DNA of 56,631 bases from an uncultured Bacilli bacterium (GTDB taxonomy: Bacteria > Bacillota_I > Bacilli_A > RF39 > UBA660), in NCBI GenBank assembly GCA_947629365.1, contig CANRDM010000001.1, positions 1 through 56,631 of the forward strand, written 5' to 3'. Position 1 is the stretch's first letter. Each line of letters starts with the position of its first letter. Of the stretch, positions 16,937-50,168 are shown one piece after another. The position numbers and the translations under genes were made by a program. The notes under the pieces are model-generated. The model was not told the origin of the DNA and did no database searches. It saw only the letters and a list, made by a program, of their open reading frames with translations.

Positions 16937-17404
16937 TTAATAACCTTTGCTTTTATAATATTCATATAATTCTTTGAAGCGATTAAAATGGACTACTTCT
17001 CTTTGTCTTAAAAATAAAAGGGGAGCTAGAACATCTTCATCATCAGTTAAATCAATTAAGTTTTCATAAACCGCTCTTGCTTTTTGTTCAGCAGCCATAT
17101 CTTCCATTAAATCGGCAATTGGATCGGCAGTTACAGCAAAATAAGTTGCGGTAAAAGGTACACCACTTGCATCAACTGGATAAATACCTTTATTATGGTC
17201 AGCATAATATGAAGCAAGACCAGCTTCTTCTAATTCTTTTAAAGATGCATCTTTAGTAAGTTCACTAACCATTGAGCAAATCATCTCACAATGACCTAAT
17301 TCTTCAGTTGCAATATCATTAAGTAAGGCTCTTCCTTTGTCATCTGGCATTGTAAATTTTTGACTAAAATAACGCATTGCGGCAGCTAATTCTCCATTTG
17401 CACC
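16937..17404 (-). pseudogene. cotJC: cotJC (Mn-catalase-family spore coat protein), 3' portion cut off from its 5' end by the prophage
   Basis: Translation ...FGGANGELAAAMRYFSQKFTMPDDKGRALLNDIATEELGHCEMI...MEDMAAEQKARAVYENL... is colinear with remembered B. subtilis CotJC from about residue 29 onward. It lacks a native start. The track ORF start at 17416 lies in phage DNA. Confidence 0.9.
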
Positions 17405-17423
17405 ACCAAAGTGCAAAAGCGAT
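17395..17423. other. attL junction (host cotJC arm | GCACC core | phage arm)
   Basis: catttGCACCaccaaagtgcaaaagcgat. The phage arm 17409-17423 is the reverse complement of atcgcttttGcactt, matching the attR phage arm in 14 of 15 positions. Confidence 0.75.
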
Positions 17424-17728
17424 AGTTAAATGATTTCGAACATAAAAAGAAAGCAAATAAATTTCTTAAAATTCAAAATGAAATAGTTGATTCATTTGAT
17501 AATTTGTAATAATAAAAGATGTGAAATAGTGCCTAATTAGTATCACCCAAAAAATGAAGTATTAAATTAGTAAAGTTAGAAAGAAACAGATTCAGTTTAG
17601 AATACCACGAAAAATGGCAAGAAGATAAATCTTTTAACGATTACTGGCATAAATTAGGGCAAATAAGATTTATGCAATATTATGATAAAACTAAAGAAGA
17701 ATTTATTAAAATTTTTAAGAAAAATTAC

Positions 17729-17758
17729 TTGTAAAATCATAATACAATATATTATAAT
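17729..17758 (+). promoter_or_regulatory. sigma-A-type promoter of the small structured transcript
   Basis: TTGTAA - 18 nt - TATAAT. Predicted start near 17766. Confidence 0.6.
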
Positions 17759-17765
17759 GTTTATT

Positions 17766-18020
17766 GAGATACATTTTGTTAGGTGCTTTTCCTCCGCTAA
17801 GCTTACAGCAGAACGGAGGTGATGCCTATGAGTGAGGAATTGAATGGAATATTTGATTATTCTTGCAATAATCCTATATCTTCTTCGAGACTGCAGTCAA
17901 AGACATTAAAAAAGAAGCACCTAATCATTGTCGATGCGACTTTGATGGTGCTTCAAAAACTTGAAACAATAGAAACATAAGGCGGAGATAGCACTTAACA
18001 TCTAAAATGTATCTCTTTTT
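17766..18020 (+). ncRNA. structured transcript of about 255 nt (candidate type I toxin mRNA)
   Basis: The 5' end GAGAUACAUUUU+GUUAGGUGCU (17766-17787) pairs with AGCACUUAAC (17990-17999) and AAAAUGUAUCUC (18004-18015), followed by U5. Internal hairpins are CCUCCG/CGGAGG (17791-96/17814-19) and 17914-17954. Confidence 0.55.
17844..17909 (+). CDS. 21-aa hydrophobic peptide, candidate type I toxin
   Basis: MEYLIILAIILYLLRDCSQRH, with GAGGA 5 nt upstream of the ATG. Below the ORF-track length cut-off. Confidence 0.4.
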   Translation: MEYLIILAIILYLLRDCSQRH

Positions 18021-18093
18021 ATGTCCTATAAATATAATATACTAATTTTCATTAATATATTCATAACAAATTAACACAAAAATAGTAATTTGT
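17908..18093 (-). ncRNA. candidate antisense sRNA (about 185 nt) convergent with the small transcript
   Basis: It runs from the minus-strand promoter at 18100-18128 to a strong minus-strand terminator, GAAGCACC-AUCA-..GUCG-CAU-CGAC..-UGAU-GGUGCUUC + U6 (17954-17908). It overlaps about 110 nt of the plus transcript's 3' region. Confidence 0.5.
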
Positions 18094-18099
18094 ATATTC

Positions 18100-18128
18100 A
18101 TTATAATACTTTTATACTACAAAATCAA
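18100..18128 (-). promoter_or_regulatory. sigma-A-type promoter for the antisense RNA
   Basis: On the minus strand TTGATT (18128-18123) - 17 nt - TATAAT (18105-18100). Confidence 0.55.
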
Positions 18129-18143
18129 TACTAAAAATGTATT

Positions 18144-18175
18144 AAAAAAACAAGGTAGAGATTAAATTCCCTACC
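18144..18175 (-). terminator. intrinsic terminator of the phage lysis operon
   Basis: On the minus strand GGUAGGG-aauuuaau-CUCUACC (one G-U) is followed by UUGUUUUUUU, directly after the endolysin stop. Confidence 0.75.
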
Positions 18176-18853
18176 TCATTTATATAGTTTAATATTTTTA
18201 ACATTCATCGAAGCCCATACTACAAGTTTGTCTTTTCTTTTAGCTGATAAAACTGCTCTATCTTCTTTTAAATCGGTAATAGTGTAATATTTATCGTATT
18301 GTTTCAGTTTAGTGCCACTGTAATTTACTAACTTAGTTGGTACTACCAAGTCACCAACTTTAAATTTTTGTACCTCTACAGGATCATTTTGAGGCTCTAT
18401 TGATGTTTCAATTTTAATATTGGGTAAATCTGTATCAACATAAGGTGTAGGATCTATTTTTACATTTTTTTCATTTCTTACTTCAAAATGTAAGTGAGCG
18501 CCATCACTACGTCCAGTATTTCCCATATAACCAAGTTGTTGTCCTTTAGTTACTTTGTCACCTTTTTTAACTTTAACTGTACCTAATTTAAAGTGAGCAT
18601 ATAAAGTATAATAACCATTAATATGTTTAATTTTCACATAATTACCATAGCTATGGCCACCTTTATCATTTGTTTTGTAATCTGATTCACATTCTACTAC
18701 CTCCCCGTCAGTATGTGCTAAAACATAATCACAAACACTTTTACTATTTTTATTACCTACTACATCAATTCCGTAATGTATTGGCGGATTATATTTCCAA
18801 GTTATCTTATTTGAATATGTTTTTAATAATCTACTCATATTATTCTCCGTCAT
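18176..18853 (-). CDS. endolysin, M23 (LytM-type) peptidase with a C-terminal SH3-like binding domain
   Basis: HxxxD and HxH metallopeptidase pattern ...YGIDVVG... GYMGNTGRSDGAHLHFEVR. Lies directly after the holin-like genes. Confidence 0.8.
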   Translation of the reverse strand: MTENNMSRLLKTYSNKITWKYNPPIHYGIDVVGNKNSKSVCDYVLAHTDGEVVECESDYKTNDKGGHSYGNYVKIKHINGYYTLYAHFKLGTVKVKKGDKVTKGQQLGYMGNTGRSDGAHLHFEVRNEKNVKIDPTPYVDTDLPNIKIETSIEPQNDPVEVQKFKVGDLVVPTKLVNYSGTKLKQYDKYYTITDLKEDRAVLSAKRKDKLVVWASMNVKNIKLYK

Positions 18854-19025
18854 TATCTTTTTTTGTAAAATAATAAGTAAATACTGCTGTCATTAAGTTA
18901 GTTACTAATATTAAAATATTATCAGACAAACTACATCCAAAAATATTAGCTAAAACAATACCTGCTAATATTATTACCATTGCTACTGTTACAAAACTTT
19001 TTAAATCTGTTAATGCTTTTTTCAT
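18840..19025 (-). CDS. holin-like protein (2 TM helices, charged C-terminus)
   Basis: 61 aa with helices FVTVAMVIILAGIVLANIFG and ILILVTNLMTAVFTYYF and tail KKDNDGE. Overlaps the endolysin start by 14 nt. Confidence 0.7.
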   Translation of the reverse strand: MKKALTDLKSFVTVAMVIILAGIVLANIFGCSLSDNILILVTNLMTAVFTYYFTKKDNDGE

Positions 19026-19355
19026 TTAATTTTCCTCCATATTAAAAGCAGATTTTGTATCTGCTAATGCTAAACTTTCATCTTGTAAAATAACGTTTTC
19101 ACATAATTTTTTTGTATAACTATCAAATCCTTTTGATAAATATAAATCACATACTTCAGCTCGCTGAATATTCGGTACTTCTTTATTCCATATAATTGCT
19201 TGCTGAGCTAATTTTGATGTTTCTGCCAGCTGTTCATTTTGAAAATCAAAATATTGGAACACTTTAAAAAAGCAGCCAAATACTGCTGATAATATTCCTA
19301 ATGATAAAGTTGACCATCCCCAATATTTTTTTATTTTCTCCATTATTTTTTCCAT
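19026..19355 (-). CDS. membrane protein of the lysis cassette (holin or antiholin partner?)
   Basis: 109 aa with one N-terminal TM helix, WSTLSLGILSAVFGCFFKVF. Abuts the holin gene. Confidence 0.45.
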   Translation of the reverse strand: MEKIMEKIKKYWGWSTLSLGILSAVFGCFFKVFQYFDFQNEQLAETSKLAQQAIIWNKEVPNIQRAEVCDLYLSKGFDSYTKKLCENVILQDESLALADTKSAFNMEEN

Positions 19356-19396
19356 TTGATATCCTCCTATTTTTTATAGTTAAAATGATAAGATAT

Positions 19397-20191
19397 TCAT
19401 TTTACACTTTTAATTTCTAATAAGTATCTTATAAGATTTATTAATTTCATTATTATTTCTCTTAACCAATACCACTTTGGCTTTTCTACTTCTTCCGGTG
19501 TTAAGTCAATTGCCCAAGCTTCAACGATAGGATAAGCATAAGGAAGAACAAAAGTGCCTTTGTTTCCCCAACTACTACCCCACGAATTTTGAATAAGTAA
19601 ACCTGTTTCGTTCCAACCATAACATACAATGGCGTGAAGCCCAATTGAATTGTCAGGTACGTACGCCACGTAATTTTTGTCTAGTTTTAAGCCTTGGTCG
19701 TCAATATCTATACATATTATTGCTGGCGTTTTAGAAGTGTATAATGCTTGCTTTATTTCATTGGTATTGTAAAGCCTTGCATAAGAGCCAATTTTATTAT
19801 TGGAAGCAATTGCTTTGTATTTAGATAAGTCTTTGTCTACAACCTCTTTAGCCTCGTTCATTTCGACGTTGGCATTTAAGTCTTTATTTGTTATGTATCC
19901 GACGTTCTTTATTGTCTTTAAAGCATCTAACACAACCATACCTTTACCTTGGTAATAGCCATCCGAACGATAGCCATATATCCAACCTGTTGAGTAGTTT
20001 ATACCGTCTTTGGTTTCAAGTATTTCTGACAAGCTATGTGCCACGCAAGAACTAACATTGCCTTGATTTTTGATATGTGAATGCGTAAGTTCAAATGAAA
20101 TCGGCAATTCAACTGTTTTAGTAGCTTTAGCAATTCTATAATTTCTCAAGTCTTTTGGAGATTTTAATGCTCCTGTATAATATTTATTCAT
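19397..20191 (-). CDS. papain-like (C1 family) cysteine peptidase
   Basis: Catalytic-Cys region NQGNVSSCVAHS and His/Asn region GLHAIVCYGW...IQNSWGSSWGNKGTFVLPY are typical of peptidase C1. Confidence 0.7.
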   Translation of the reverse strand: MNKYYTGALKSPKDLRNYRIAKATKTVELPISFELTHSHIKNQGNVSSCVAHSLSEILETKDGINYSTGWIYGYRSDGYYQGKGMVVLDALKTIKNVGYITNKDLNANVEMNEAKEVVDKDLSKYKAIASNNKIGSYARLYNTNEIKQALYTSKTPAIICIDIDDQGLKLDKNYVAYVPDNSIGLHAIVCYGWNETGLLIQNSWGSSWGNKGTFVLPYAYPIVEAWAIDLTPEEVEKPKWYWLREIIMKLINLIRYLLEIKSVK

Positions 20192-20199
20192 AAATCACC

Positions 20200-21142
20200 T
20201 CACAAACAGAATGATGGTGCTAGCCCACGATTATAATCATTAGTACTATATTCAAACTCACCTTTTTTATTTACTATAATCCACAAATTATCATCGTATG
20301 AGCTAGGGCTTCTTAGCCAATAGTTAAGGTTTATTGTGCTTTTATTTCCATTATTATTAGCAGTCTTAGTTTTCGCACTTGAATTATAATATGAATATTG
20401 CTCACCTTCTGAATTAGAATTTCCTTTATAACCTTGATAACTTTGATTTCCAAACATTTCAGAACCAGATGCCAAAAATACTTTATCTTCCGTATCAGGA
20501 CCTGCCGTGCTATCGGTATGATTAGCTAAATTCTTCTTTATAACTGTTTTAATTAATGGCTTTATGCCTTCTGGAAGAGCACTAATAAATGTTGTATTGC
20601 ACCAGGTACGACGCGGATTATTTGACCAATTATCAGTATTAGTTGTTTTTACAGTTCTGGAACCCCAAATATAACCACCTTCAACACTTCCTTTATTTCC
20701 TAACATTTCTTTACATTGTAAGGTAATAGCAGCCTTTGTTTTTCCATTGATAGCCTCTTTAAGATTATCTTGTTCTATTCCTACAATAATCATTGTTATA
20801 TCTTGCTCCACGTGACTTTCATCTGCATAGGGTGGTGTTGCTGACATAGCATTCAAGTGCATTACTCTTGTATCTCCTACTTTCCAATAATCATTTATAT
20901 CAATTTTACCTTTATAATATGCTTTAAGTACTTGAGCAATTTGTTCATCAGTAGCAGTAGCAAACGGTGCTTCTTGTGGAGTTGGTATAGGTTTTTCTTC
21001 ATACTTCCATATAACCTCTCCGGCGTGGGCTATGCCAAGTAATTTCTTACCATTTTTAGCTATGCCCTGAAAGGTTTTAACATTTTTAAATAGCTCTAAT
21101 TGCCCCCCCCCGAGCGAACAATTGTATTTTTTTATTTTTCAT
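20200..21142 (-). pseudogene. extra receptor-binding module gene, frameshifted at a G9 tract (phase-variable or sequencing artefact)
   Basis: ATG 21142 (AGGAGA upstream) gives MKNKKIQLFARGG, then the G9 tract. As written, that frame stops after 18 codons. With G8 or G11 it continues ...QLELFKNVKTFQGIAKNGKKLLGIAHAGEVIWKYEE...VMHLNAMSATPPY... into track ORF 20200-20862. The product is a paralogue of the last module of the 907-aa fibre. Confidence 0.7.
21103..21111. repeat. C9 (G9 on the coding strand) homopolymer
   Basis: ttgCCCCCCCCCgag, counted directly. It is the longest G/C run I noticed in this AT-rich window. Confidence 0.95.
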
Positions 21143-21157
21143 TTTTTTATTTCTCCT

Positions 21158-23881
21158 TTATAAACAAAATGATGGGGCTATACCAAAGTTATTTTCAAAA
21201 TCAGCAACAGTAGCAGAGCTATAATAATCACTAAATGCGAACCAAAAACGATTTTCAGAAATAGCAGGGCTTCTTAACCAATATGAAGATGTTGAACTTC
21301 CTGCTTCACCATTATTATTAATATATTTTTTTCTTCGAGTATTTGATTTATAGTAATCATATTGCTCTCCTTCAAGTGCTATACTTCCTAAATAGTTGTC
21401 TTTGCCATCATAATCTTTTTCATTCCCATATATTTCAGATACAGATATAAGAAATGCTTTATCTTCAGTATTAGTTCCTGGTGTATTATTTTTATGGTTT
21501 GCTAGATTTTTTTTAACAATTGTTTTCACTAATGGTTGGATATTGCTAGGTAGTGAATTAACAAATATATCATTTAACCACGTTCTTCGTGCATTAGTAG
21601 AAAAATTAGTAGTAGTTGTGGTTGATAAATAACCATATTCAAGTACACCATTATTGCCTAGCAATTCTCTACATTGTAAAGTAATTGCAGCTTTTCCATA
21701 ACTATTTATAGGAGTAACTAATGTATCGTGGTTCATACCTATAATAACCATTGCCATATCTTGTTCAACGTGGGTATCATTAATTCCTTTACTCGTAGCC
21801 ATCGCATTTAAATGCATTACTCTAGTATCGCCAACGTGCCAGTAGTCTGCTATGTTTATTTTACCAGAATAATGCAAGTCCAAGTATTCCCTTATTTCGT
21901 CATCGCTTGCTTCTGCAAAAGGCTTAATTATTGGCTTAGGTTCTTCATATTTCCATATAATCTCTCCTACGTGTGCTATACCAAGTAGTTTTTTATCATT
22001 TTTAGCTATGCCTTGGAAAAGTTTTTCATTTTTAATTAGTTTGTGATGTATTACAAGGTCAGGTTCGGCGGCTAAGCAAAATGCAGGGGCTAAACAATTA
22101 GAGCTACCACTATAACCAAGGTTTGCATAGCCATAGTTACCACTAACATCAGAGTGTACACTACACCAACGGTAACCATCAGTAGTATTAGATACAGGAG
22201 AGCTTTCCCACCACTCACACCCGGTAAGATTTGGTACACCATTATTATTTCCTCTTTTAAGCCTATTGCTAGGTTCTTTATAATATTCCCATTGTGTTCC
22301 TTCTTGACCAGTTGGAACGGTATTTCCTAAATAATTTAAATACGCAACATTGCCGAATATTTCGGAATAGGATGGTAAAAATATTTTATCATTTACTTCC
22401 TCAGTTGTTTTTAAATTATATTTAGTTAATCTATTATGTTTAGTTTCTACGATTAAATTTTGCAATTCTTTAGAAAAACAAGTTGTTAAGAAATCACCAT
22501 TAAGCCAAGTTCTCAATGGTAATTCTGACCACTTTGTAGGTTTCGTAAGATTACTAGTTAGATTAACACGAACAGTACCATTTTCACCCCATCCTTGTGA
22601 TAGGTTATTTAAGACTTCTCTCGTTTGACAAGTTATTATAGCTTTCGTTTTATTATTAATAGGTGTTACTAAATCGTGATAATTAATCGCTGTTATTACA
22701 ATTGTGATATCTTGGTCTTTCCAACGCTCCGGAAAATTTGTTTCTGGGCTGTCTATTCCATTTAGATGAATTAATCTGGTGTCACCTACGTGCCAATAAT
22801 CTGCAAGATTTATTTCCCCAGCGTAGTGCATTTTTAAATATTGTGTAAGCTCTTTATCAGAACAAGTGGCAAAAGGTCTAATTCCAGATATTGGTTCTTT
22901 AACTATTTCATATGGATTTTCCATAGTTCCGTCACCTTTTAAATTGACCGAACCTTTAATATTAATAACTGGCCTTAAGTAGCAAGATGTATTTGATATA
23001 TTATTTCCAGATATAGTGCCGTTTTCTTGAATATTCATCATATTAACTGACGTACCATCGTAGCTCGATGGTGACATAGTCCAAAAATTTGATCCAGTAC
23101 ATAAATAGTAATTTGTATTTTCTGTAGGATAACTTCCTCCAGCATACATAGCTTCATCACTAGTAAGCAGTCCTACTGGGTGTTTAAGTACCTGATTTCC
23201 TTTTCCTTCACTATTTACCATTGTAAATAAGTCATTAGTATATTCGCACCTAAATGAAGGAGTAGATATAGTTGTTCTTCTAAAGTATGGTCCGTAATAT
23301 GTTGCTTTAGCGCCAAACCCGTAACTTGTCTTATTAGGTATAGAACTTGTCGTTATATTTGGCCTCTCATAAGGTGTACGATCATTAATAAATCCTGATG
23401 TTAAATCTATATAATCTAAGTAACTATTTAATCCAATTTTTTCAAACCAGCTGCTTAATTCTTCAGCTGCGCTAGATGGAGTTTCGTTTATATGTGTAGC
23501 ATCGTATGCTGCTTGACTTATTTTACCATAGTAGTGTCCAACATAAGTATTATCATTATATAATGTATTAAATTTAATTGGGCTACCTGCGCATCTATCA
23601 GTATCACCACTTGTATCACCATTAGCATAAGTTTTACTGCCATCATATATTAATCTAATAGAACCACTTCCATTTATTCTAATTATACGCCAAAATTTAT
23701 TAGCAAATTTAAAATAATTATCTTCAACAGCTCCTCTATAATAATAGGTATCACCGTCATTATCTACATCTTTATATAATTTACCTTTACTTACAGTTTC
23801 ATCAGCTTGGCTAAAATCTGGTTTTTCTGTAATTATTTGTTTGCCATTTAAAATATAATCTCTTGCTTTAGATTCAGCCAT
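21158..23881 (-). CDS. tail fibre / receptor-binding protein with three C-terminally related modules
   Basis: 907 aa. Modules end ...CYLRPVINIKG (about residue 320), ...WWESSP...CLAPAFCL (about 612) and ...YWLRSPA...GIAPSFCL (907). The last two each start with ...P(F)A..SD.E...YL..HY.G.IN.ADYWHVGDTR. The WLRSP-type module resembles what I recall as DUF6273 (unverified). Confidence 0.7.
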   Translation of the reverse strand: MAESKARDYILNGKQIITEKPDFSQADETVSKGKLYKDVDNDGDTYYYRGAVEDNYFKFANKFWRIIRINGSGSIRLIYDGSKTYANGDTSGDTDRCAGSPIKFNTLYNDNTYVGHYYGKISQAAYDATHINETPSSAAEELSSWFEKIGLNSYLDYIDLTSGFINDRTPYERPNITTSSIPNKTSYGFGAKATYYGPYFRRTTISTPSFRCEYTNDLFTMVNSEGKGNQVLKHPVGLLTSDEAMYAGGSYPTENTNYYLCTGSNFWTMSPSSYDGTSVNMMNIQENGTISGNNISNTSCYLRPVINIKGSVNLKGDGTMENPYEIVKEPISGIRPFATCSDKELTQYLKMHYAGEINLADYWHVGDTRLIHLNGIDSPETNFPERWKDQDITIVITAINYHDLVTPINNKTKAIITCQTREVLNNLSQGWGENGTVRVNLTSNLTKPTKWSELPLRTWLNGDFLTTCFSKELQNLIVETKHNRLTKYNLKTTEEVNDKIFLPSYSEIFGNVAYLNYLGNTVPTGQEGTQWEYYKEPSNRLKRGNNNGVPNLTGCEWWESSPVSNTTDGYRWCSVHSDVSGNYGYANLGYSGSSNCLAPAFCLAAEPDLVIHHKLIKNEKLFQGIAKNDKKLLGIAHVGEIIWKYEEPKPIIKPFAEASDDEIREYLDLHYSGKINIADYWHVGDTRVMHLNAMATSKGINDTHVEQDMAMVIIGMNHDTLVTPINSYGKAAITLQCRELLGNNGVLEYGYLSTTTTTNFSTNARRTWLNDIFVNSLPSNIQPLVKTIVKKNLANHKNNTPGTNTEDKAFLISVSEIYGNEKDYDGKDNYLGSIALEGEQYDYYKSNTRRKKYINNNGEAGSSTSSYWLRSPAISENRFWFAFSDYYSSATVADFENNFGIAPSFCL

Positions 23882-23884
23882 AAA

Positions 23885-43051: not shown

Positions 43052-43067
43052 CTTCTAAACATTAAGA

Positions 43068-43331: not shown

Positions 43332-43584
43332 TTATTCTCCGATATTCTTTCAAGATAGCGTTTTCAAGTTTTTGCCTACATTCCATATTTAAAGGATGTG
43401 CTACGTCTTTAAAAGTGTTATCAGGCATTTTTTCACTAGGCATTGCCACAAACAACCTATTATCGCCTCTTATTATTTTAATTCCTGTGATTATAAATTC
43501 ATTATCTATTACAATACTCGCTGATCCTAATAATCTTTTGTTTTCTATTTCTAATTTTTTTACTTTAACACTTGTAATTTTCAT
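43303..43584 (-). CDS. spoVG: SpoVG-family protein encoded by the phage
   Basis: MKITSVKVKKLEIENKRLLGSASIVIDNEFIITGIKIIRGDNRLFVAMPSEKMPDNTFKDVAHPLN is colinear with remembered SpoVG (..[46 protein letters not shown]..). Confidence 0.8.
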   Translation of the reverse strand: MKITSVKVKKLEIENKRLLGSASIVIDNEFIITGIKIIRGDNRLFVAMPSEKMPDNTFKDVAHPLNMECRQKLENAILKEYRRINEGIIKENE

Positions 43585-43605
43585 AATATATTTTTCCTTT
43601 CTTAT

Positions 43606-44397
43606 TTACTGAAAATCTTTCAAAAGATTTACTAATTCTGTTTCTTCTTCTGCATTTAATTTTTCTTCAACTATCGTTTTATTTAGCCAGTCTGGTGGCC
43701 TTTCAACTTTTCTTTTATAAATATGCTTTTGATTCTCAAATTCTTTCTCACGTTGTTCAAGCTGTTCTTTAGTAGTAATTCCTTTTTCCTGGCACTCTTT
43801 AATTATTTTCTCAATGTATTTAATATTTAACTTATTTTGTTTACCAGCTTCTCTAATTGCATACAATGTGATATAATTAATACACACCGTGTTAAAATAA
43901 TTTTGTTCTTCACCATTCAAAATTCGATTAAAAACTTTTTCAACGTAGGCAATAAATTTTTCTCTAGTAGTAGTAGATATATTTATATCATTATTTATTA
44001 ATTCAGTATTTATTATATTATTATTTATATATACGTCATTTACTAACGCGTTGTTTATTGACGCGTTATCTAGCGACGTGTCATTTACTGACGTATTCTT
44101 TTCTTTTAAAACATAAATGTAATCAGACATATTATTTTTGTTTGCTCTTATAATTTCTAAATAACCAGCATCTTTTAATCGTTTTATCTTAGCATTTATA
44201 TTTCTTAAATTACATTTTAATTCAGTAGCTAAATAACTTTGGTTAACTTTCCAACCATTAGGCAAAGAATATAAATAGATCATAAGCCTATAATCTCCAT
44301 CCGATACATCTTTAGCCCTTATAATTGAATTAGGTATAGTACTAAATTTATTTCTTATTTCACTCTTAAGTATTGCCATATATTCTCCTATAGCCAA
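43606..44397 (-). CDS. replication initiator / replisome organiser (N-terminal wHTH + C-terminal DnaD-like domain)
   Basis: 263 aa. The N-terminus ...IPNSIIRAKDVSDGDYRLMIYLYSLPNGWKVNQSYLATEL is wHTH-like. The C-terminus ...FIAYVEKVFNRILNGEEQNYFN...IREAGKQNKLNIKYIEKIIKECQEKGI is DnaD/DnaB_2-like. Confidence 0.7.
   Translation of the reverse strand: MAIGEYMAILKSEIRNKFSTIPNSIIRAKDVSDGDYRLMIYLYSLPNGWKVNQSYLATELKCNLRNINAKIKRLKDAGYLEIIRANKNNMSDYIYVLKEKNTSVNDTSLDNASINNALVNDVYINNNIINTELINNDINISTTTREKFIAYVEKVFNRILNGEEQNYFNTVCINYITLYAIREAGKQNKLNIKYIEKIIKECQEKGITTKEQLEQREKEFENQKHIYKRKVERPPDWLNKTIVEEKLNAEEETELVNLLKDFQ
44033..44098. repeat. five tandem iterons of about 15 bp inside the replication gene (candidate ori)
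   Basis: ACGTCATTTACTA / ACGCGTTGTTTATTG / ACGCGTTATCTAGCG / ACGTGTCATTTACTG / ACGTATTC.. Encoded as NTSVN-DTSLD-NASIN-NALVN-DVYIN. Confidence 0.6.
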
Positions 44398-44460
44398 CTA
44401 AAACCGCCCTGTTTGATTATTTTTAAAATTTATGTTATATTTATTTCGTTAAATTTTTAT

Positions 44461-44703
44461 TTAACGAATTAATGTAGATACTGACATTTCGTAACTATTG
44501 ATGTCAGTATCTTTTATTTTGCTTTCTAAATATTCGTAAGATAATTCTAAAATTATTGCAAAAAAGCAAAAACTTAATATTCCAAAAACTGTCCAACATA
44601 CTGATAACTTAGTTATAATAACAAATAAATCATAGAATACTGCTCCAAGACTAACTAAATTTAAAATCAAAATTGTTAAATTTTTCTTGTTAATTTTCTT
44701 CAT
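44461..44703 (-). CDS. small membrane protein, hypothetical
   Basis: 80 aa with two TM helices. Confidence 0.45.
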   Translation of the reverse strand: MKKINKKNLTILILNLVSLGAVFYDLFVIITKLSVCWTVFGILSFCFFAIILELSYEYLESKIKDTDINSYEMSVSTLIR

Positions 44704-44718
44704 ATAAAATACCCCTCT

Positions 44719-44826
44719 CTATTCCATATTTTTTAATAATTCACAAATTTCTTTTATTTTTTTAGAGGCTTGCTCTTCACTTACTGGATTATGAACTATA
44801 ACTTTTAATTCTTTTTTACATTTCAT
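44719..44826 (-). CDS. small hypothetical ORF (35 aa)
   Basis: MKCKKELKVIVHNPVSEEQASKKIKEICELLKNME, with GGAG upstream. Confidence 0.3.
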   Translation of the reverse strand: MKCKKELKVIVHNPVSEEQASKKIKEICELLKNME

Positions 44827-44895
44827 AAGTTTCAACTCCTATATTAGCTTATGTTTTTTGTTTAGTTTGGGTTAATTACCTATTCTAGTAGGTTA

Positions 44896-45006
44896 TTCAG
44901 ACACTTATTTGAGAACTAGATGAAAAAATAGAAAAAGTTTATTTAAATAGTATTTCAAAATATAAAAGAGTAAAGAGGTTAATCTAGTCCTCAGTAAGTG
45001 CCTGAA
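44896..45006 (-). repeat. long imperfect inverted repeat (about 25-bp arms, 60-nt loop), probable RNA stem-loop
   Basis: TTCAGACACTTATTTGAGAACTAGAT (44896-44921) against ATCTAGTCCTCAGTAAGTGCCTGAA (44982-45006). The two mismatches are A/C on the plus strand, so they become G-U pairs in a minus-strand RNA. Confidence 0.55.
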
Positions 45007-45015
45007 TTTTATTTT

Positions 45016-45249
45016 TTAATTTAAAGGTATATTATGTTTCTTTAATAATTCTTCATAATAAATAACTTTTTTTCGTAATTCTTTAGTTTCTAATCGATAA
45101 TCATCATAATGAATAATTCGGTCCAATTCTTCTATTTTTCTTAAAGTTGTCTTACTGGCATTTCCGAATGCTCTTTCATCATATAATTCCGATTCTAATT
45201 TTCTTCTTTTTTCGATATATCTTTCTATATCTTTTTTAGTGAAATTCAT
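45016..45249 (-). CDS. hypothetical early phage protein
   Basis: 77-aa ORF. Confidence 0.5.
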   Translation of the reverse strand: MNFTKKDIERYIEKRRKLESELYDERAFGNASKTTLRKIEELDRIIHYDDYRLETKELRKKVIYYEELLKKHNIPLN

Positions 45250-45321
45250 ACTTCTACTCCTTTTAGATTGATTATTTTCTCCTATTCGATTAAAATAATT
45301 AAATTAGAAAGGAGAATTAAA

Positions 45322-45684
45322 TTGAAACTAATACACGATTGTATACGAGATGTAATGCTATACATAGAAGACAATTTACAAGACAATAATGTATTAATGA
45401 CTTCTGAAATAAGTTATAATGTTAGAAAATATACTCCAGAAGATATTAACTATACTTGCAAAAAATTATATGAGGCCGGATATCTTAACATTGAATGCTA
45501 TGTTAGTGGCGAAATTGCAATTAAAAGTATGACTTATAATGGTCATCTATTTTTAGATAATGTTAGAGATAATAAAATATGGTCTGCTACTAAATCAATA
45601 ATTTCTAAATTTGCAAGTGTATCTTTACCAATTATTCAACAAGTTGCTGTACAATTAATTAATAACCAGCTCGGAATTAAATAA
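45322..45684 (+). CDS. YjcQ/DUF2513-like winged-helix protein, opposite orientation to the early operon
   Basis: Start moved to TTG 45322 (AGGAGA 7 nt upstream). MKLIHDCIRDVMLYIEDNL...CKKLYEAGYLNIE...MTYNGHLFLDNVRDNKIW resembles remembered YjcQ/DUF2513 proteins. Confidence 0.55.
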   Translation: MKLIHDCIRDVMLYIEDNLQDNNVLMTSEISYNVRKYTPEDINYTCKKLYEAGYLNIECYVSGEIAIKSMTYNGHLFLDNVRDNKIWSATKSIISKFASVSLPIIQQVAVQLINNQLGIK

Positions 45685-45695
45685 TCCGAGTTTTT
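45670..45695 (+). terminator. intrinsic terminator
   Basis: CTCGGA-attaaataa-TCCGAG followed by T5. Confidence 0.65.
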
Positions 45696-45757
45696 ATTGT
45701 ATATAATTATATTTAAAATAATATTTTTTAAATAATTAGATATCATATATTCTCGCC

Positions 45758-46006
45758 TTAACTATCATTTGACACTTGAATATAAGACATATAGTCTTGT
45801 TTTAAAGCATTTAAAAATTCATCTATTTCTTTTTCAGAAGCTTTTAAAACATTTAAAATTTTCATAACTATATCTAGGTCACAATGTAGTAAATCATTTT
45901 CGTAAATATTATAAGCTTGCCTAGATATTCCAAGCTTTTCGGCTATATTATCTTGTGTGAGTAATCTTTGACCTCTAATGCTTTTTATAATTTTGGTTGT
46001 GTTCAT
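45758..46006 (-). CDS. Cro-like XRE-family regulator
   Basis: 82 aa with HTH RLLTQDNIAEKLGISRQAYNIYEN. Divergent from the cI-like gene. Confidence 0.8.
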   Translation of the reverse strand: MNTTKIIKSIRGQRLLTQDNIAEKLGISRQAYNIYENDLLHCDLDIVMKILNVLKASEKEIDEFLNALKQDYMSYIQVSNDS

Positions 46007-46028
46007 TTATTACCTCCTATCTAAGTAC

Positions 46029-46115
46029 ATTATATAAGACAATTTGTCTTGTGTCAATAATTTTTTGACAAATAGTCTTATTTTTGTTGATAATTTGTAA
46101 AAAACAAACTATAAT
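46029..46115. promoter_or_regulatory. lysis/lysogeny switch: divergent promoters and operators
   Basis: Minus strand: TTGACA (46057-52) - 17 nt - TATAAT (46034-29), with the perfect palindrome AAGACAATTTGTCTT (46036-46050) filling the spacer. Related half-site pair TTGACAAATAGTCTTA at 46065-46080. Plus strand: TTGATA (46087-92) - 17 nt - TATAAT (46110-15). Confidence 0.7.
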
Positions 46116-46133
46116 AATTAAAAAGGAGGAAAA

Positions 46134-46787
46134 ATGGAAAATAATTTTGCGTCAAATTTAAAACATTTGAGATTGCAAAAAGGACTAACTCAACAAGAAT
46201 TAGCGAATAAGCTTGGAAAAGATTATTCAACAATTGGAAAATGGGAATTAGGACAAAGAAGTCCTATAATGACTGATGTAATAAAAATCGCGAATTTTTT
46301 TGATGTATCTTTGGAGAAATTAATTGGTTCATCAATTATCTATGATAATGCAGAAATAATACCCACATCAGAAACTATACAAATTCCGGTTTTAGGAACT
46401 ATTAAAGCTGGAATTGCTATTGAAGCTCAACAAGATATATTAGAATATATAGATATACCAAAAGAATGGTTAAAAGGTGGCAAATTGTTTTACGGTTTAA
46501 AAATAAGTGGAGATAGTATGGCACCAAAATATGAAGAAAATGACATTGTTATATTTGAACAAAACAATGATTTTGATAAAGCCAATAATAAAGACTGTGC
46601 TGTTATGGTAAATGGTTTTGATGCTACATTTAAAAACGTAACAATAAACGAAAATGGTATAACACTTGTACCACTTAATTTAAATAATCAAGACCACTAC
46701 TTACCAACTTTTTACAATAAAGAACAAATAGCAAATTTGCCAGTTAAAATTATTGGTATTGCTAAAGAAAAGAGGACGAGATTATGA
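46134..46787 (+). CDS. CI-like repressor (XRE HTH + S24/LexA-type autopeptidase domain)
   Basis: N-terminus LRLQKGLTQQELANKLGKDYSTIGKWELGQR. C-terminus ...ISGDSMAPKYEENDIVIFE... (Ser of the S24 motif) with a Lys later in the chain. Confidence 0.9.
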   Translation: MENNFASNLKHLRLQKGLTQQELANKLGKDYSTIGKWELGQRSPIMTDVIKIANFFDVSLEKLIGSSIIYDNAEIIPTSETIQIPVLGTIKAGIAIEAQQDILEYIDIPKEWLKGGKLFYGLKISGDSMAPKYEENDIVIFEQNNDFDKANNKDCAVMVNGFDATFKNVTINENGITLVPLNLNNQDHYLPTFYNKEQIANLPVKIIGIAKEKRTRL

Positions 46788-47254
46788 AAAAAATATATAA
46801 AATATTAATACCAAGTGCTGTAGCTTTAGGTGTTATTGGAACTTTTACAGAAAATGATACACCAAATACAAATCTTATGGATAACAATAAAAGTTCTTAT
46901 ACTGAAACAGAATCAAAAAAAGATGTAGATAAAGAAGAAAATAATAACCAAACTGTAGAAAATGACAAAAAAGAAGAAACCACTGATAAAACAAATGATA
47001 AAACCTCCGACCAAAACGTTGACAAAACAACTGATAAAGTCGCTGATAAAACTTCTACAAATACAACAAATAATAATTCAAAAGATAAAACTGCTAACAA
47101 TAAAGATACAAATAAGGAAAACCAAAATTTGCCATTAAAAGCTATTTGCAATGACGGAACTATTTCTTATCAAGATGATTCAAGTAAAGATAATTATAGG
47201 GGAATGTGTTCTGGACACGATGGAATTAAAGAAAAATTAGGTAGAGTAAAATAA
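46784..47254 (+). CDS. secreted or membrane-anchored protein with a C-terminal DUF3761-like Cys motif, co-transcribed with the repressor
   Basis: The ATG overlaps the cI stop (ATGA). Signal/anchor ILIPSAVALGVIGTF, low-complexity (T/D/K/N) linker, C-terminus ICNDGTISYQDDSSKDNYRGMCSGHDGIK. Confidence 0.6.
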   Translation: MKKIYKILIPSAVALGVIGTFTENDTPNTNLMDNNKSSYTETESKKDVDKEENNNQTVENDKKEETTDKTNDKTSDQNVDKTTDKVADKTSTNTTNNNSKDKTANNKDTNKENQNLPLKAICNDGTISYQDDSSKDNYRGMCSGHDGIKEKLGRVK

Positions 47255-47370
47255 TAATAGTTAATAAAAATATATATTTTATTTAAAATTGCATATAATA
47301 GAGTTAGGAAAGTCAAAATTAATTGATTTTCTACCAAACTTGTGGTAATATAATTACACAAGTTGTAATT

Positions 47371-47476
47371 GACTGCATTGTGAAGAATTTTTTTCGAGGA
47401 ACATATTAGTCAGTCTGATTATAACATCAAGAATAGCGTTGTGAAGAGGAAACTCGAGGAACATATTAGTCTATTC
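47371..47476 (+). ncRNA. two tandem structured RNA repeats (61-nt period), candidate type III antitoxin
   Basis: Core GC(A/G)TTGTGAAGA-N7/8-CGAGGAACATATTAGT occurs twice (47375-47410 and 47436-47470). Each core is closed by a different helix, GACTG/CAGTC (47371-75/47411-15) and GAATAG/CTATTC (47431-36/47471-76), giving three compensatory pair changes. A TATAAT lies at about 47294. Confidence 0.6.
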
Positions 47477-47483
47477 GCTGTTT

Positions 47484-47513
47484 AAGGAACTCTATTATTA
47501 GGGTTCCTTTTTC
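47484..47513 (+). terminator. intrinsic terminator between the RNA repeats and the toxin gene
   Basis: AAGGAACTC-tattatta-GGGTTCCTT followed by TTT, about 20 nt upstream of the toxin RBS. Confidence 0.7.
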
Positions 47514-47533
47514 AATTGTTAGGAGGTAAATTT

Positions 47534-47902
47534 ATGAAAAATGGAGAAATATATTATATAGATTTTAAAGGCAATAGAGGTTCAGAAATAAATGATATAC
47601 ATTTAGGCATAATATTTACTATTCCTAAAGTAAAGAATATGGTATTTTGTATTCCTCTTACAAGTCCAAAAGAAAAACATTTTAAGAACATAGATGCATT
47701 TAATAATCGTAATCATAATGAATTAAAATATCAAAATTTAATTTATATAGATAAAACGGATTCAATAGCATTATTAGATCAAATTAGAACAATATCAACG
47801 CAAAGATTAATTAAATCTTATAACGTAACTTTAGATATTACACATATAAATTTAATTATAGTTAAAGTTAATAAATTTATAAAAAATGTAATGAAAAAAT
47901 AA
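47534..47902 (+). CDS. PemK/MazF-fold endoribonuclease toxin without a protein antitoxin gene
   Basis: 122 aa from ATG 47534 (AGGAGG 7 nt upstream). GEIYYIDFKGNRGSEINDIHLGIIF..., ...FCIPLTSPKEKH... and DSIALLDQIRTISTQRL parallel remembered B. subtilis MazF/EndoA (GDVYFADLSPVVGSEQ..., DSVILLEQIRTIDKQRL). Confidence 0.75.
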   Translation: MKNGEIYYIDFKGNRGSEINDIHLGIIFTIPKVKNMVFCIPLTSPKEKHFKNIDAFNNRNHNELKYQNLIYIDKTDSIALLDQIRTISTQRLIKSYNVTLDITHINLIIVKVNKFIKNVMKK

Positions 47903-47927
47903 TTAGGTTGAAATTTTAGAAAAATTA

Positions 47928-47961
47928 AAAAAGACCTCTACTCTGCTAGAACAGAATAGAG
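47928..47961 (-). terminator. minus-strand intrinsic terminator between the toxin and integrase genes
   Basis: On the minus strand CCUCUAUUCUG-uucuag-CAGAGUAGAGG (one G-U) is followed by UCUUUUUU. No T-run follows it on the plus strand. Confidence 0.55.
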
Positions 47962-48014
47962 GTAAATGAAAACCCAAACTAAACGAATTTTAATAGCCCA
48001 TATTAAATATATTT

Positions 48015-48056
48015 TTGCTACATATATTTGCTACATATATAGGTTTTCTATATAAT
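48015..48056 (+). promoter_or_regulatory. integrase promoter with a tandem 13-bp repeat
   Basis: TTGCTACATATAT occurs twice in tandem (48015-27 and 48028-40). The second copy supplies TTGCTA - 17 nt - TATAAT (48051-56). An inverted TGTAGC follows at 48057. Confidence 0.5.
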
Positions 48057-48091
48057 TGTAGCATAAATTTTAAGTAAAAGAAAGGAATTTT

Positions 48092-49534
48092 ATGAAAGAA
48101 GAAAGAATTGCTGCAATATATATTCGTGTCAGTACAGATTCTCAAACAGAATACTCTCCTGATGCACAATTAAAAGCAATAAAAGAATACGCCAAAAGAA
48201 ATAATATTGAAATAGATCCTAAATACATATACAAAGACGAAGGCTTTAGTGGCCGTAAAGCAGAAAAAAGACCAGCATTTATGCAAATGATCGCTACAGC
48301 TAAAACAAAGCCTACTGCCCCATTTAATGTTATCTTAGTACATAAACTAGATAGATTTGCAAGAAATCGTGAAGATAGTATAGTTTATAAATCATTACTC
48401 AAAAGGGAATGCAAAGTTGAAGTAATATCAATTACCGAAGATTTTGGCGATGATAAGTTTTCTGTTATTTTAGAGGCAATGTTAGAAGCAATGGCAGAAT
48501 ACTACTCTCTTAACTTATCTGATGAAGTAAAAAAAGGTATGGTTGAAAAGGCAAATAGAGGTGAATATCAAACAAAAGCACCCTTTGGCTATAAAATGGT
48601 CGATAAAAACTTAATTGTTGATACAGAGGCCTCAAAAATAGTAAAAATGATATTTAATGATTATCAAAATGGAATTAGTTTTAAAGGCATTGCTAAAAAA
48701 TTAAACAATTTAGGGATCAAAACTTCGCAAAATAATAAATGGGAAGTAAGAACTATTGAATATATATTAAGAAATCCTGTATATAAAGGTTATACTTTAT
48801 GGACACCTAATGCAAAAAGTAGTTGGGATTATAAATTTAAAGCAAAAAATGGCATCTTAAAAAAAGGAAGCCACGAATCAATTATTGAAGAAGCCACTTT
48901 TGATAATATTCAAAACCAAATTTTAAAGAAAAAAGATTTATATAAATCGACTTCAACTAGTAACTTTAGTTGGATTAGTAAGTTAGTAAAATGTAGTAAT
49001 TGTGGTTCTACTCTAACCACACAAAAAAATGCTCTTCAATGTATAGGCTATTCTCACGGAAGTTGTGAAGAAAGTCATTATATTAGTTATTCTAAAATTA
49101 TACCAGCAATATTAAATCAAATTCAAAAAGATTATAAAAATCCTATTAACATTAATTTTAGTAAGAAAAAAATAAAAAATGATATTTTAGATGAAAAAGA
49201 TATTTTAGAAAATAATTTAAAAAATTTGCAAGAAAAATTAGTAAGAAGTAAAAATTTATATTTAGAAGGAATAGATACTTTAGAAGAATATAAAGAGAAT
49301 AAATTGCAAATTGAAAAAAACATTAAGGAAATTAATGAAAAAATTGATAAACTACCTAAAGGCAAAGAAACAGTCAAAGAACAAAACATTTCTATAAATG
49401 CTAAAAATGTATATGAATTATTAATTGATGAAAAAATTGATATGGTAAAAAAATACACTGTCATTCACGAACTTATTGATTATATTGTTTATGATAAAAA
49501 AAATGAAACCATTGAGATTTATTACAAAGAATAA
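48092..49534 (+). CDS. large serine recombinase (phage integrase)
   Basis: 480 aa. Resolvase-type catalytic N-terminus AAIYIRVSTDSQ..., a recombinase domain, a zinc-ribbon CSNCGS..C...C and a C-terminal coiled coil. Its stop lies 21 nt from the att core. Confidence 0.93.
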   Translation: MKEERIAAIYIRVSTDSQTEYSPDAQLKAIKEYAKRNNIEIDPKYIYKDEGFSGRKAEKRPAFMQMIATAKTKPTAPFNVILVHKLDRFARNREDSIVYKSLLKRECKVEVISITEDFGDDKFSVILEAMLEAMAEYYSLNLSDEVKKGMVEKANRGEYQTKAPFGYKMVDKNLIVDTEASKIVKMIFNDYQNGISFKGIAKKLNNLGIKTSQNNKWEVRTIEYILRNPVYKGYTLWTPNAKSSWDYKFKAKNGILKKGSHESIIEEATFDNIQNQILKKKDLYKSTSTSNFSWISKLVKCSNCGSTLTTQKNALQCIGYSHGSCEESHYISYSKIIPAILNQIQKDYKNPININFSKKKIKNDILDEKDILENNLKNLQEKLVRSKNLYLEGIDTLEEYKENKLQIEKNIKEINEKIDKLPKGKETVKEQNISINAKNVYELLIDEKIDMVKKYTVIHELIDYIVYDKKNETIEIYYKE

Positions 49535-49539
49535 AAAAC

Positions 49540-49566
49540 ATCGCTTTTACACTTAGCACCTCCAAA
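49540..49566. other. attR junction (phage arm | GCACC core | host cotJC arm)
   Basis: atcgcttttacacttaGCACCtccaaa. Confidence 0.75.
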
Positions 49567-49650
49567 TTGAGTAAGTAAATATTTAGCCATTCTTAAATCT
49601 TTTTTGCTTATATTTATCGGATAATTGGTATGCTTAACATATTTAAACAT
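49556..49650 (-). pseudogene. cotJC: cotJC 5' portion (about 31 codons) separated from the rest of the gene by the prophage
   Basis: GGAGG lies 8 nt upstream of ATG 49650, which overlaps the cotJB stop. MFKYVKHTNYPINISKKDLRMAKYLLTQFGGA then reads into phage DNA (KCKSDVFYSL*). Confidence 0.85.
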
Positions 49651-50119
49651 AAAGATTACCTCCTAAATCATCCCAAGGCCAAGGACTATCAATCCAAGTA
49701 AACTTATCACCTTTAGTCTTATTTACTGTAAGTGGTCCATAACTTTCCATATATTCTTTTTTAGCTTCTTTTTCTTCTTTTACTAATTGCTCAAATAAAT
49801 CCATTACTTCTTTATCATCGGGATGAAGATCTAAGTATAAATTTAAATCATTGATGGCAAAAGAATATTGCATAACATTAAATAATTTTGCTTCTCTATC
49901 ACTTTTAGGGCGAATATTTATGTAAGTTAAATTTTTATAAGGAACATATTCATTTTTAAACATATTTCCTCTTAAAAATCCTTCTTTAGCTGGTAAAATA
50001 TTTGGATTACTTTTGTCAAACATTTGATTAGTCATATTAATACTTTTACCTAAATTATTACCACTAGTTAAGTTTAATAAAGCAAAATCTAAATCAACAT
50101 TGTTATTATCAAATAACAT
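49643..50119 (-). CDS. cotJB: spore coat protein CotJB with a CotJA-like N-terminal half (apparent fusion)
   Basis: The C-terminal half ...FNVMQYSFAINDLNLYLDLHPDDKEVMDLFEQLVKEEKEAKKEYMESYGPLT is CotJB-like. The N-terminal half ...LPAKEGFLRGNMFKNEYVPYKN resembles the CotJA motif. Confidence 0.75.
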   Translation of the reverse strand: MLFDNNNVDLDFALLNLTSGNNLGKSINMTNQMFDKSNPNILPAKEGFLRGNMFKNEYVPYKNLTYINIRPKSDREAKLFNVMQYSFAINDLNLYLDLHPDDKEVMDLFEQLVKEEKEAKKEYMESYGPLTVNKTKGDKFTWIDSPWPWDDLGGNLYV

Positions 50120-50140
50120 AAAAAAATTACCTCCTACATT

Positions 50141-50168
50141 AATGTATGAGATAATTAAAATACCTTAT
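50141..50168 (-). promoter_or_regulatory. sigma-E-type (mother-cell) promoter of the cotJ operon
   Basis: On the minus strand ATA (50168-66) - 17 nt - CATACATT (50148-41), matching the remembered sigma-E consensus ATA-N16-18-CATACA-T. Confidence 0.55.

Follow-up and report, generated by a model that had tools for sequence, protein, structure and literature searches.

The spore-coat gene cotJC is split in an uncultured gut Bacilli bacterium by an apparently intact siphovirus prophage that may be excised to rebuild it

The stretch of DNA analysed here, which we refer to as the window, is a metagenome-assembled contig of 56,631 nt from an uncultured Bacilli bacterium of the rabbit gut, in which the spore-coat gene cotJC is split by an inserted element with the gene content of a siphovirus and with a large serine recombinase (LSR) encoded at one of its ends (Table 1). 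The 5' fragment of cotJC starts with an ATG at 49650 and its frame reads MFKYVKHTNYPINISKKDLRMAKYLLTQFGG; in the lysogen this frame runs past 49561 into 11 unrelated phage-derived codons and ends with a stop at 49522. The 3' fragment (17404-16937) opens with GANGELAAAMRYFSQKF, and upstream of it there are only stops and a TTG without a ribosome-binding site, on which grounds a replacement N terminus supplied by the phage was rejected. Neither fragment has been replaced by phage sequence. Joined on the minus strand (49650..49561 to 17404..16937), the two give 558 nt in frame that encode 185 aa followed by a stop and read ...AKYLLTQFGGANGELAAAMRYFSQKF. The joined product aligns with the Pfam family Mn_catalase over residues 1-175 (E 8e-52) and with the Mn-catalase-family structure 6j42 over the same residues 1-175, without a gap across the junction. 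Intact 185-aa CotJC orthologues up to 97% identical to it were found in a scan for cotJC relatives that covered one genome per species (n=490), and the exact joined protein was absent among about 15 billion proteins. The best 80 of these 490, which were examined for their source, were almost all metagenome-assembled genomes (MAGs) of uncultured Bacilli from the gut of rabbit, goat, chicken, mouse and human, some of them under the older labels Mycoplasma sp. CAG:776 or Candidatus Caccenecus.

Uninterrupted cotJC with colinear flanks is present in at least four related genomes (L001, L002, L004, L007), in whose alignments the parts of the window up to 17413 and from 49553 onwards abut with an overlap of a few bases and meet at a GGTGC core. 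The prophage junction was, moreover, assembled independently in two further samples (L088, L089), which together with the contiguous empty sites argues that the arrangement is neither a chance match nor an assembly artefact. On the plus strand, both junctions carry GCACC, and the phage-side arms next to it (17409-17423 and 49540-49554) form an inverted repeat of 15 nt, with a single mismatch between them, and are better conserved than the neighbouring non-coding DNA. The attL junction also occurs in L044, L059 and L069 and the attR junction in L044, L069, L082, L088 and L089, with core and arms common to L044, L059, L069 and L082. In-silico excision of the element yields attB as ACTCAATTTGGAGGTGCAAATGGAGAATTAGC and attP as AACATCGCTTTTACACTTAGCACCACCAAAGTGCAAAAGCGATAG, and the attP predicted for the window phage, ATCGCTTTTGCACTTTGGTGGTGCTAAGTGTAAAAGCGAT, is symmetric at 14 of 18 positions around GG, the predicted central dinucleotide. 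The core shared by attP and attB is GGTGC in the window and extends to up to 14 nt in L069, and the exchange between the two sites is shown to lie inside the shared GGTGC, within the conserved Q-F-G-G-A-N codons of cotJC. No tRNA gene and no Rfam match was found in the window, and attB is thus not of the tRNA type. The host flanks consist of housekeeping genes, namely rimP-nusA-infB-rbfA-truB-rpsO-pnp on one side and an FtsK/SpoIIIE-family translocase gene, trmL and a Ca-ATPase gene on the other.

Upstream of the 5' fragment lies cotJB, and the pattern ATA-N17-CATACANT, which resembles a sigmaE-type promoter, has its single exact match in the window directly upstream of this gene. The predicted -10 element (CATAnnnTA-like, CATAcA-TA) recurs at this position in the majority of about 60 orthologous loci, each from a different species, an indication that mother-cell sigma factors are still in use in the lineage. 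In Bacillus subtilis, cotJ is expressed in the mother cell, and from this analogy and the predicted promoter we infer mother-cell expression of cotJC in the present host as well. The CotJB-domain protein has a 78-aa N-terminal extension without a detectable domain, and a DUF6568/PedC-like gene (50179-50793), conserved across the lineage, lies directly upstream of cotJB.

A preliminary description of the window had proposed much of this arrangement, and its coordinates all proved right. The 32-kb prophage within cotJC, the in-frame join and its uninterrupted alignment, the missing native start of the 3' fragment, the GCACC common to both junctions, the arms that make a palindromic attP, the recombinase gene ending 21 nt from the core and the sigma-E-like pattern before the cotJ genes were all borne out, and the related genomes without insert that it had suggested looking for exist. 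Its statement that cotJC is translationally coupled to cotJA/B holds in so far as the start of cotJC overlaps the stop of cotJB; the 158-aa open reading frame (ORF) in question, however, contains a CotJB domain only, with no CotJA domain detected by Pfam, and there is no separate cotJA.

The LSR has a catalytic RVSTDSQ motif, a zinc ribbon and a coiled-coil-like C-terminal region and matches the integrases of PHROG 95 (E 7e-105). Its gene ends at 49534 and is under purifying selection, with a ratio of non-synonymous to synonymous substitutions (dN/dS) of 0.04-0.08. Among deposited phages, the best tblastn match was only 40% identical and came from a woodrat-faeces virus, and a scan of IMG/VR for relatives gave only a partial match of 25%. 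A graded series of relatives was found among 5.8 billion protein clusters, and their contexts were inspected at several levels of identity. At 100% (window, L088, L089), 99.6% (L044 / L090-L092), 93% (L069 / L095) and 79% (L082), the recombinase gene is followed by cotJB and the N-terminal fragment of cotJC. At 69% (L100) the C-terminal fragment of cotJC comes directly after the recombinase gene, and the same fragment follows at 63% (L086, L087), 59% (L101, L102) and 52% (L103, L104). The asymmetric centre of attP (TGGTGGTGC) runs in the direction of the recombinase gene in the relatives of 52-70% and antisense to it in the 79-100% group, so that the two groups insert in opposite orientation relative to cotJC. 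In two relatives the contig was assembled across an intact attP, with the recombinase gene, attP and then lysis and tail genes (L084, attP ATCACTTTTGCAAAATGGTGGTGCATTTTGTAAAAGATAT; L099, attP ATCTCTTTTGCACAATGGTGGTGCTAAGTGCAAAAGAGAT), and these two sites share with the one predicted for the window a palindromic architecture that is symmetric about the same GG. One and the same recombinase protein (P0007) occurs in the attP form in L099 and integrated in cotJC in L100. These attP-form contigs and the P0007 pair are direct evidence that the LSR family belongs to active phages that use the cotJC site. A further phage with identical neighbour genes sits in cotJC in L107 and elsewhere in L106, upstream of a secreted hydrolase gene, where the junction (L106 6700-6830) reads ...CATATGGTGG on one side and continues with ACTTTTATG on the other; this location may be a secondary attachment site.

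Another three species representatives have cotJC interrupted at the position seen in the window. One of them (L059) carries the end of another full prophage. In the other two, the cotJC halves are separated by only 3.7 kb (L044, with flanks about 96% identical to those of the window) and 4.2 kb (L069, flanks about 83% identical). Both of these mini-elements have lost the lytic genes and have kept the recombinase gene, both att arms and an ORF of 35 aa. L044 also keeps the MazF-like gene and a 152-aa homologue of the 156-aa cargo protein of the window, and has an unrelated 135-aa ORF, while its repressor and Cro-like genes are gone; L069 retains an Abi_2 gene and a cI-like repressor. In both, the 35-aa ORF has become joined to the last codons and the terminator of the endolysin gene, after which attL follows; each deletion ends at most about 70 nt downstream of the 35-aa ORF and about 100 nt or less from the endolysin stop. 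A single ancestral deletion was considered and rejected, since the endpoints differ on both sides, and the two deletions are thus independent. In L044, which was assembled in three independent data sets, the 35-aa ORF and about 47 nt upstream of it are flanked by the deletion on one side and by unrelated DNA on the other, and the adjacent membrane-protein gene lacks its ATG. At the distal prophage end of the window, a segment of about 750 nt between the endolysin terminator and attL (17424-18175) holds two small plus-strand ORFs (46 and 53 aa); it is missing from the L069 element and may represent a moron or else encode a regulatory RNA.

For the window, L044 and L069 alike, in-silico joining restores an in-frame cotJC of 185 aa without stops, and exact recombination between attL and attR would restore CotJC. 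Between these joined split alleles dN/dS is 0.023-0.052, as compared with a mean of 0.045 when intact alleles are compared. The split alleles cannot be told apart from the intact ones by the selection acting on them, which is compatible with continued function and equally with recent insertion. Co-divergence with the host was also weighed against recent transfer. The synonymous divergence (dS) of the recombinase gene between window and L069 (0.51) lies at the low end of the range of host genes (0.5-1.2), and that between window and L044 (0.046) lies below the host values (0.09-0.37). Between the conspecific window and L044, the element is a mosaic, with a recombinase segment 98.6% identical and a small-ORF segment 88% identical, and dS is uneven, with 0.03-0.05 for the recombinase gene and mazF, 0.09-0.10 for nusA, infB and cotJB, 0.37 for ftsK and DUF6568 and 0.66 for the small ORF. 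Such unevenness is a sign of recombination tracts extending across the boundary of the element.

Given its retention in both mini-elements together with the recombinase gene and the att arms, which fits the attL-rdf-int-attR unit of B. subtilis (PMC6957869), the 35-aa ORF (MKCKKELKVIVHNPVSEEQASKKIKEICELLKNME) probably encodes the recombination directionality factor (RDF) of the LSR. Homologues stand beside related recombinase genes in L082, L084, L086, L100, L101 and L103, and in every inspected integrated phage contig that covers the region they have the Cro-like gene on one side and the replication genes on the other; this linkage holds down to 52% recombinase identity and across different replication modules. 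A reverse look-up from one homologue (P0146) found the recombinase gene 2-4 kb away in all three contexts (L105-L107). The ORF is under purifying selection (dN/dS 0.08-0.24, the comparison of L044 with L069 included). A profile search of 1.84 billion representatives returned 124 clusters, all of tiny stand-alone proteins, and no homologue has a Pfam domain on record. In the AlphaFold (AF2) model of the protein (predicted local distance difference test, pLDDT, 83), the N-terminal half has no regular structure and residues 17-34 form a helix. The preliminary description had called for a search for a directionality factor and its promoter, which has yielded a candidate gene with a sigmaK/E-like motif upstream. 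The motif, AC-N17-CATAAGCTA, has three matches in the 56.6-kb window, about the number expected by chance, and is notable for its position in a conserved block rather than for the match count. This block of about 47 nt is conserved in the window, L044 and L069, and the sequence of L044 further upstream is unrelated. Among six homologues examined, CATAnnnTA stands upstream of the four closest and of that in L086, and L084 has a near match.

Taking these observations together, we lean, with somewhat more than even confidence, towards a model in which a siphovirus is integrated in cotJC by its LSR and leaves the mother-cell chromosome through the action of a directionality factor, with the mini-elements as domesticated end-products. 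According to this model, the LSR would be made constitutively from its own sigmaA-like promoter, and the 35-aa protein would act as directionality factor and set the direction towards excision. Its gene might be transcribed by two routes, either as part of the early lytic operon after the LexA-like repressor has cleaved itself upon DNA damage, or, during sporulation, in the mother cell from a sigmaK/E-like promoter of its own. By the latter route the phage would exit the mother-cell chromosome and cotJC would be rebuilt and expressed, whereas the forespore would retain the prophage, as with SPbeta/spsM, phi3T/kamA and skin/sigK. The elements of 3.7 and 4.2 kb, reduced to attL, rdf, int and attR, might then be what remains of such phages after domestication, and the existence of relatives of about 4 kb that keep only the excision machinery suggests that the host uses excision to rebuild cotJC. 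We regard developmental excision in the mother cell, which the preliminary description had offered as a possibility, as evenly poised when taken by itself and judged from sequence; it has gained support from the two independently reduced mini-elements and from the unrelaxed selection on the split alleles. A wider generalisation, which we put forward only tentatively and which may well be too broad, is that a large and as yet uncharacterised clade of LSR phages has the FGG(A/P)NGEL codons of cotJC as its target throughout the gut Firmicutes and that, among uncultured genome-reduced Bacilli, its members have repeatedly been cut down to a mother-cell switch for rebuilding cotJC, about 4 kb long (attL, micro-rdf, cargo, int, attR), whose 35-aa protein would be the smallest RDF known for a serine integrase.

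Several points weigh against excision in the mother cell and against the part assigned to the small ORF. The attP of the window element, which its excised form would carry, was not found in IMG/VR or JGI metagenome contigs with exact or degenerate patterns. The 35-aa ORF belongs to no recognisable family (its best PHROG match, E 0.0035, is not significant), the protein would to our knowledge be shorter than any other RDF, and its co-occurrence with the recombinase could in part reflect shared inheritance of a lysogeny module. Over the window as a whole, matches to the sigmaK/E-like motif class show no enrichment, and the ribosome-binding site follows the proposed -10 element after only about 6 nt, an unfavourable spacing for a promoter. 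Unrelaxed selection on the split alleles would be expected of recent insertions too, and by flank divergence the insertion state is not monophyletic. In addition, cotJ mutants of B. subtilis are mild (cited in PMC12122855), so that disruption might be tolerated, and the host, an uncultured MAG, may hold a second cotJC copy elsewhere in its genome.

Some of these points would fit ordinary lysogeny, in which cotJC is a mere landing site, excision takes place only in the DNA-damage (SOS) response, CotJC is lost or replaced by a paralogue at little cost and the mini-elements are decaying remnants in which the recombinase gene happens to be still intact. This is possible, if rather unlikely in our judgement. 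The prophage does have a full SOS-type switch, its recombinase clade is found on active phages in many hosts, the relative in L106 occupies a site other than cotJC, cotJC paralogues are common and cotJ mutants mild (PMC11222575, PMC12122855, PMC13492147), and the insertion state is patchy among close species. Against decay of this kind stand the two independent deletions, which stop near the same 35-aa ORF and the endolysin stop and spare the recombinase gene and the att arms, the fact that L044, an element with no repressor or Cro-like gene, has kept the small ORF together with the block just upstream of it, and the purifying selection on small ORF and recombinase between the mini-elements; the conservation of the att arms above that of adjacent non-coding DNA and the absence of the exact joined allele of this species from the protein collection also speak against it. 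That the mini-elements are instead small integrative islands or satellites, which carry defence cargo (MazF-like, Abi_2) and share the recombinase and attB of the phage, is improbable. Defence-like cargo and the mosaic nature of L044 would suit such islands, yet the last codons and terminator of the endolysin gene, the truncated membrane-protein gene and a repressor fragment look like scars of prophage deletion, and replication and packaging functions are absent from both elements.

As to the host, it seems similarly improbable that its lineage does not sporulate and that cotJB-cotJC is vestigial or has another role, for example in oxidative-stress defence, in which case there would be no mother-cell switch. 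Some related genome-reduced orders of Bacilli (RFN20, RF39, ML615J-28) include non-sporulating families; for other families of these orders, which have cotJB, spore formation is predicted (PMC10868615). In the flanks of the window, cotJ was the one sporulation-specific element to be recognised, the FtsK/SpoIIIE-family translocase being left unassigned. Against a vestigial role stand the strong purifying selection on cotJC across the lineage (dN/dS about 0.045) and the mother-cell-type -10 element CATAcA-TA, kept across about 60 species. Finally, an assembly artefact or chimeric contig would be conceivable for any metagenome-assembled contig such as the window, but we give it hardly any credence here, as the junctions were reassembled in other samples (L088, L089), the L044 mini-element in three data sets, and the junctions are exact at the recombinase core with the gene join in frame.

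The kind of arrangement proposed for cotJC is already known from Bacillus and Clostridium. Prophages or prophage remnants in mother-cell sporulation genes that are excised by serine recombinases include skin, SPbeta, phi3T, vfbin, vrin, gin, PhiS63 and yin (PMC4191935, PMC5025042, PMC6957869, PMC3442830, PMC10747680), and int-rdf units and small intervening elements are maintained for gene reconstitution (PMC4191935, PMC6957869). The closest parallels are SPbeta in spsM and phi3T in kamA of B. subtilis, with the pairs SprA/SprB and Int/Rdf, which are likewise complete temperate phages in a presumed mother-cell gene with an LSR at one junction; the model of constitutive int and a small rdf under dual control by stress and sporulation (PMC4191935, PMC6957869) is the one we apply here, and degenerate derivatives of SPbeta that keep int and rdf in B. 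amyloliquefaciens (PMC4191935) may be compared with our mini-elements. The window element differs in its target, cotJC, in a recombinase that is not closely related, in phage size (32 kb versus 134 kb), in a candidate rdf of 35 aa, located on the int side of the element at a distance of 3.3 kb from that gene, and in its uncultured host.

Like L044 and L069, the skin elements in sigK (SpoIVCA/Skr in B. subtilis, CD1231/CD1234 in C. difficile) are defective remnants that keep the LSR and the att sites (PMC5025042, PMC6957869). Unlike skin, the window element is a full phage, and the gene that it splits encodes a coat protein and not a sigma factor, so that no regulatory checkpoint is implied. 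The skin elements measure 48 kb and 14.6 kb, as compared with about 4 kb for the mini-elements. PhiS63 in sigK of C. perfringens and yin in yabG of C. botulinum are also functional or prophage-like elements in sporulation genes, for which exact excision was seen by polymerase chain reaction (PCR) (PMC3442830, PMC10747680); PhiS63 is inducible and yin excises in a growth-phase-dependent manner, whereas the window element is known from sequence alone, and the targets differ. A similar logic applies to the XisF/fdxN element of Anabaena heterocysts, where, in cells that have differentiated terminally, an LSR excises DNA from within a gene. The window LSR aligns with the NCBIfam XisF model over its full length (E 9e-30, below the cut-off). 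The XisF system is nevertheless cyanobacterial and not a phage, and the similarity reflects only the shared large-serine-recombinase family; it also involves the accessory proteins XisH and XisI. A preprint (bioRxiv 10.1101/2021.11.22.469490) names cotJC as a gene in which integration is frequent and refers for this to Abe et al. 2013 (Mol Microbiol 90:415), who reportedly list elements that interrupt cotJC; that paper aside, we found no characterised cotJC element in the literature consulted.

New in these observations are the host group, the series of naturally reduced elements, the candidate RDF of 35 aa and the recombinase clade, for which attP and attB are defined. If mother-cell excision is true, programmed DNA rearrangement in the mother cell extends to a coat gene and to uncultured genome-reduced gut Bacilli, whose sporulation is debated. 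The natural series from a full phage to an element of 4 kb pinpoints the minimal excision unit and nominates an unannotated 35-aa family of 124 clusters as RDF for an LSR clade without a close deposited relative. Pairs of integrase and RDF with defined 40-bp sites are tools for genome engineering, to which a 35-aa RDF, if confirmed, would add a compact new part. In surveys of MAGs, split cotJC alleles should not be scored as pseudogenes or as a loss of sporulation.

Table 1. Coordinates of the features at the cotJC locus and in the inserted prophage (window positions)
Feature	Position	Strand	Remarks
Whole inserted element, 32,156 bp	17405..49560		delimited by empty-site alignments to L001, L002, L004, L007
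attL (distal junction)	17385..17430		host half-site, core GCACC 17400-17404, phage arm 17409-17423
attR (recombinase-proximal junction)	49535..49580		phage arm 49540-49554, core GCACC 49556-49560, then host half-site
cotJC 3' fragment, 155 codons and stop	16937..17404	-	no native start
cotJC 5' fragment, 30 codons	49561..49650	-	start overlaps cotJB stop by 8 nt
cotJB, 158 aa	49643..50119	-	Pfam CotJB, residues 79-150, E 1e-25
Predicted sigmaE-type promoter of the cotJ operon	50141..50168	-	ATA-N17-CATACATT
Large serine recombinase, 480 aa	48092..49534	+	Pfam Resolvase, Recombinase, Zn_ribbon_recom (PF00239, PF07508, PF13408)
Predicted sigmaA-like promoter of the recombinase gene	48028..48056	+	TTGCTA-17-TATAAT, 10/12 consensus positions; consensus match only
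35-aa ORF, candidate recombination directionality factor	44719..44826	-	kept in both mini-elements
sigmaK/E-like motif	44845..44872	-	AC-N17-CATAAGCTA, directly upstream of the 35-aa ORF
MazF/PemK-like toxin gene, cargo	47516..47902	+	Pfam PemK_toxin, E 8e-10; kept in mini-element L044
156-aa cargo protein	46784..47254	+	weak DUF3761 match on record; signal-peptide-like N terminus by eye
cI/LexA-like repressor	46134..46787	+	Pfam HTH_3 and Peptidase_S24 (self-cleaving)
Divergent lysis/lysogeny switch promoters	46029..46115		perfect TTGACA-17-TATAAT facing the early lytic genes
Cro-like helix-turn-helix regulator, first early lytic gene	45758..46006	-	PHROG transcription regulators
DnaD-like replication initiation / helicase-loader protein	43606..44397	-	PHROG 186, E 2e-26
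SpoVG homologue, early region	43303-43584	-	Pfam SpoVG, E 6e-30; NCBIfam septation regulator SpoVG
Tyrosine recombinase, 212 aa, Xer-like	42413-43051	-	PF00589; far from both junctions; also in L088
Packaging module	35340..37961	-	HNH endonuclease 37632-37961, small-terminase-position gene 36989-37375, large terminase 35340-36989
Head and neck module	29597..35395	-	portal, maturation protease, major head, adaptor, neck and major tail proteins
Tail module	19397..28803	-	tape measure, Dit, minor tail and virion proteins, 907-aa fibre with internal repeats, peptidase
Lysis region	18176..19355	-	two small ORFs in holin position; M23-type peptidase endolysin 18176-18853 (PHROG endolysin/metallo-endopeptidase)

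The gene content of the element, as assigned from PHROG and Pfam, is that of a full siphovirus. No obvious disruption affects the genes for its switch, for replication and packaging, for head and tail or for lysis, and the element is apparently an intact temperate siphovirus. With megablast, 25 kb of the prophage found no match among 50,697 deposited phages. The packaging module matches PHROG 119, 1066 and 9 (E 1.5e-159), the head and neck module PHROG 12, 80, 10, 5223, 1951, 5, 957 and 885, and the tail module PHROG 991, 33, 538, 1220 and 16701 as well as Pfam DUF6273. The 212-aa tyrosine recombinase was considered as the integrase and rejected, being internal and short, with junctions of serine-integrase architecture.

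Some further features of the phage may be mentioned. The MazF/PemK-like toxin gene is an orphan in the window and in L044, with no obvious antitoxin, and other genes found on the recombinase side are Abi_2 in mini-element L069 (7509-8528, minus strand) and DUF3800 or Fic/RhuM in other relatives, so that the slot beside the recombinase gene looks like a hotspot for defence-like cargo. SpoVG is a host-type regulator of sporulation and septation, carried here by a phage that resides in a sporulation gene. In the tail region, three diverged direct repeats of about 955 nt with 64-83% identity (20442-23536) extend over the ORF at 20200-20862 and the fibre gene at 21158-23881, and these fibre repeats (DUF6273 x3) suggest a modular, duplicated receptor-binding region.

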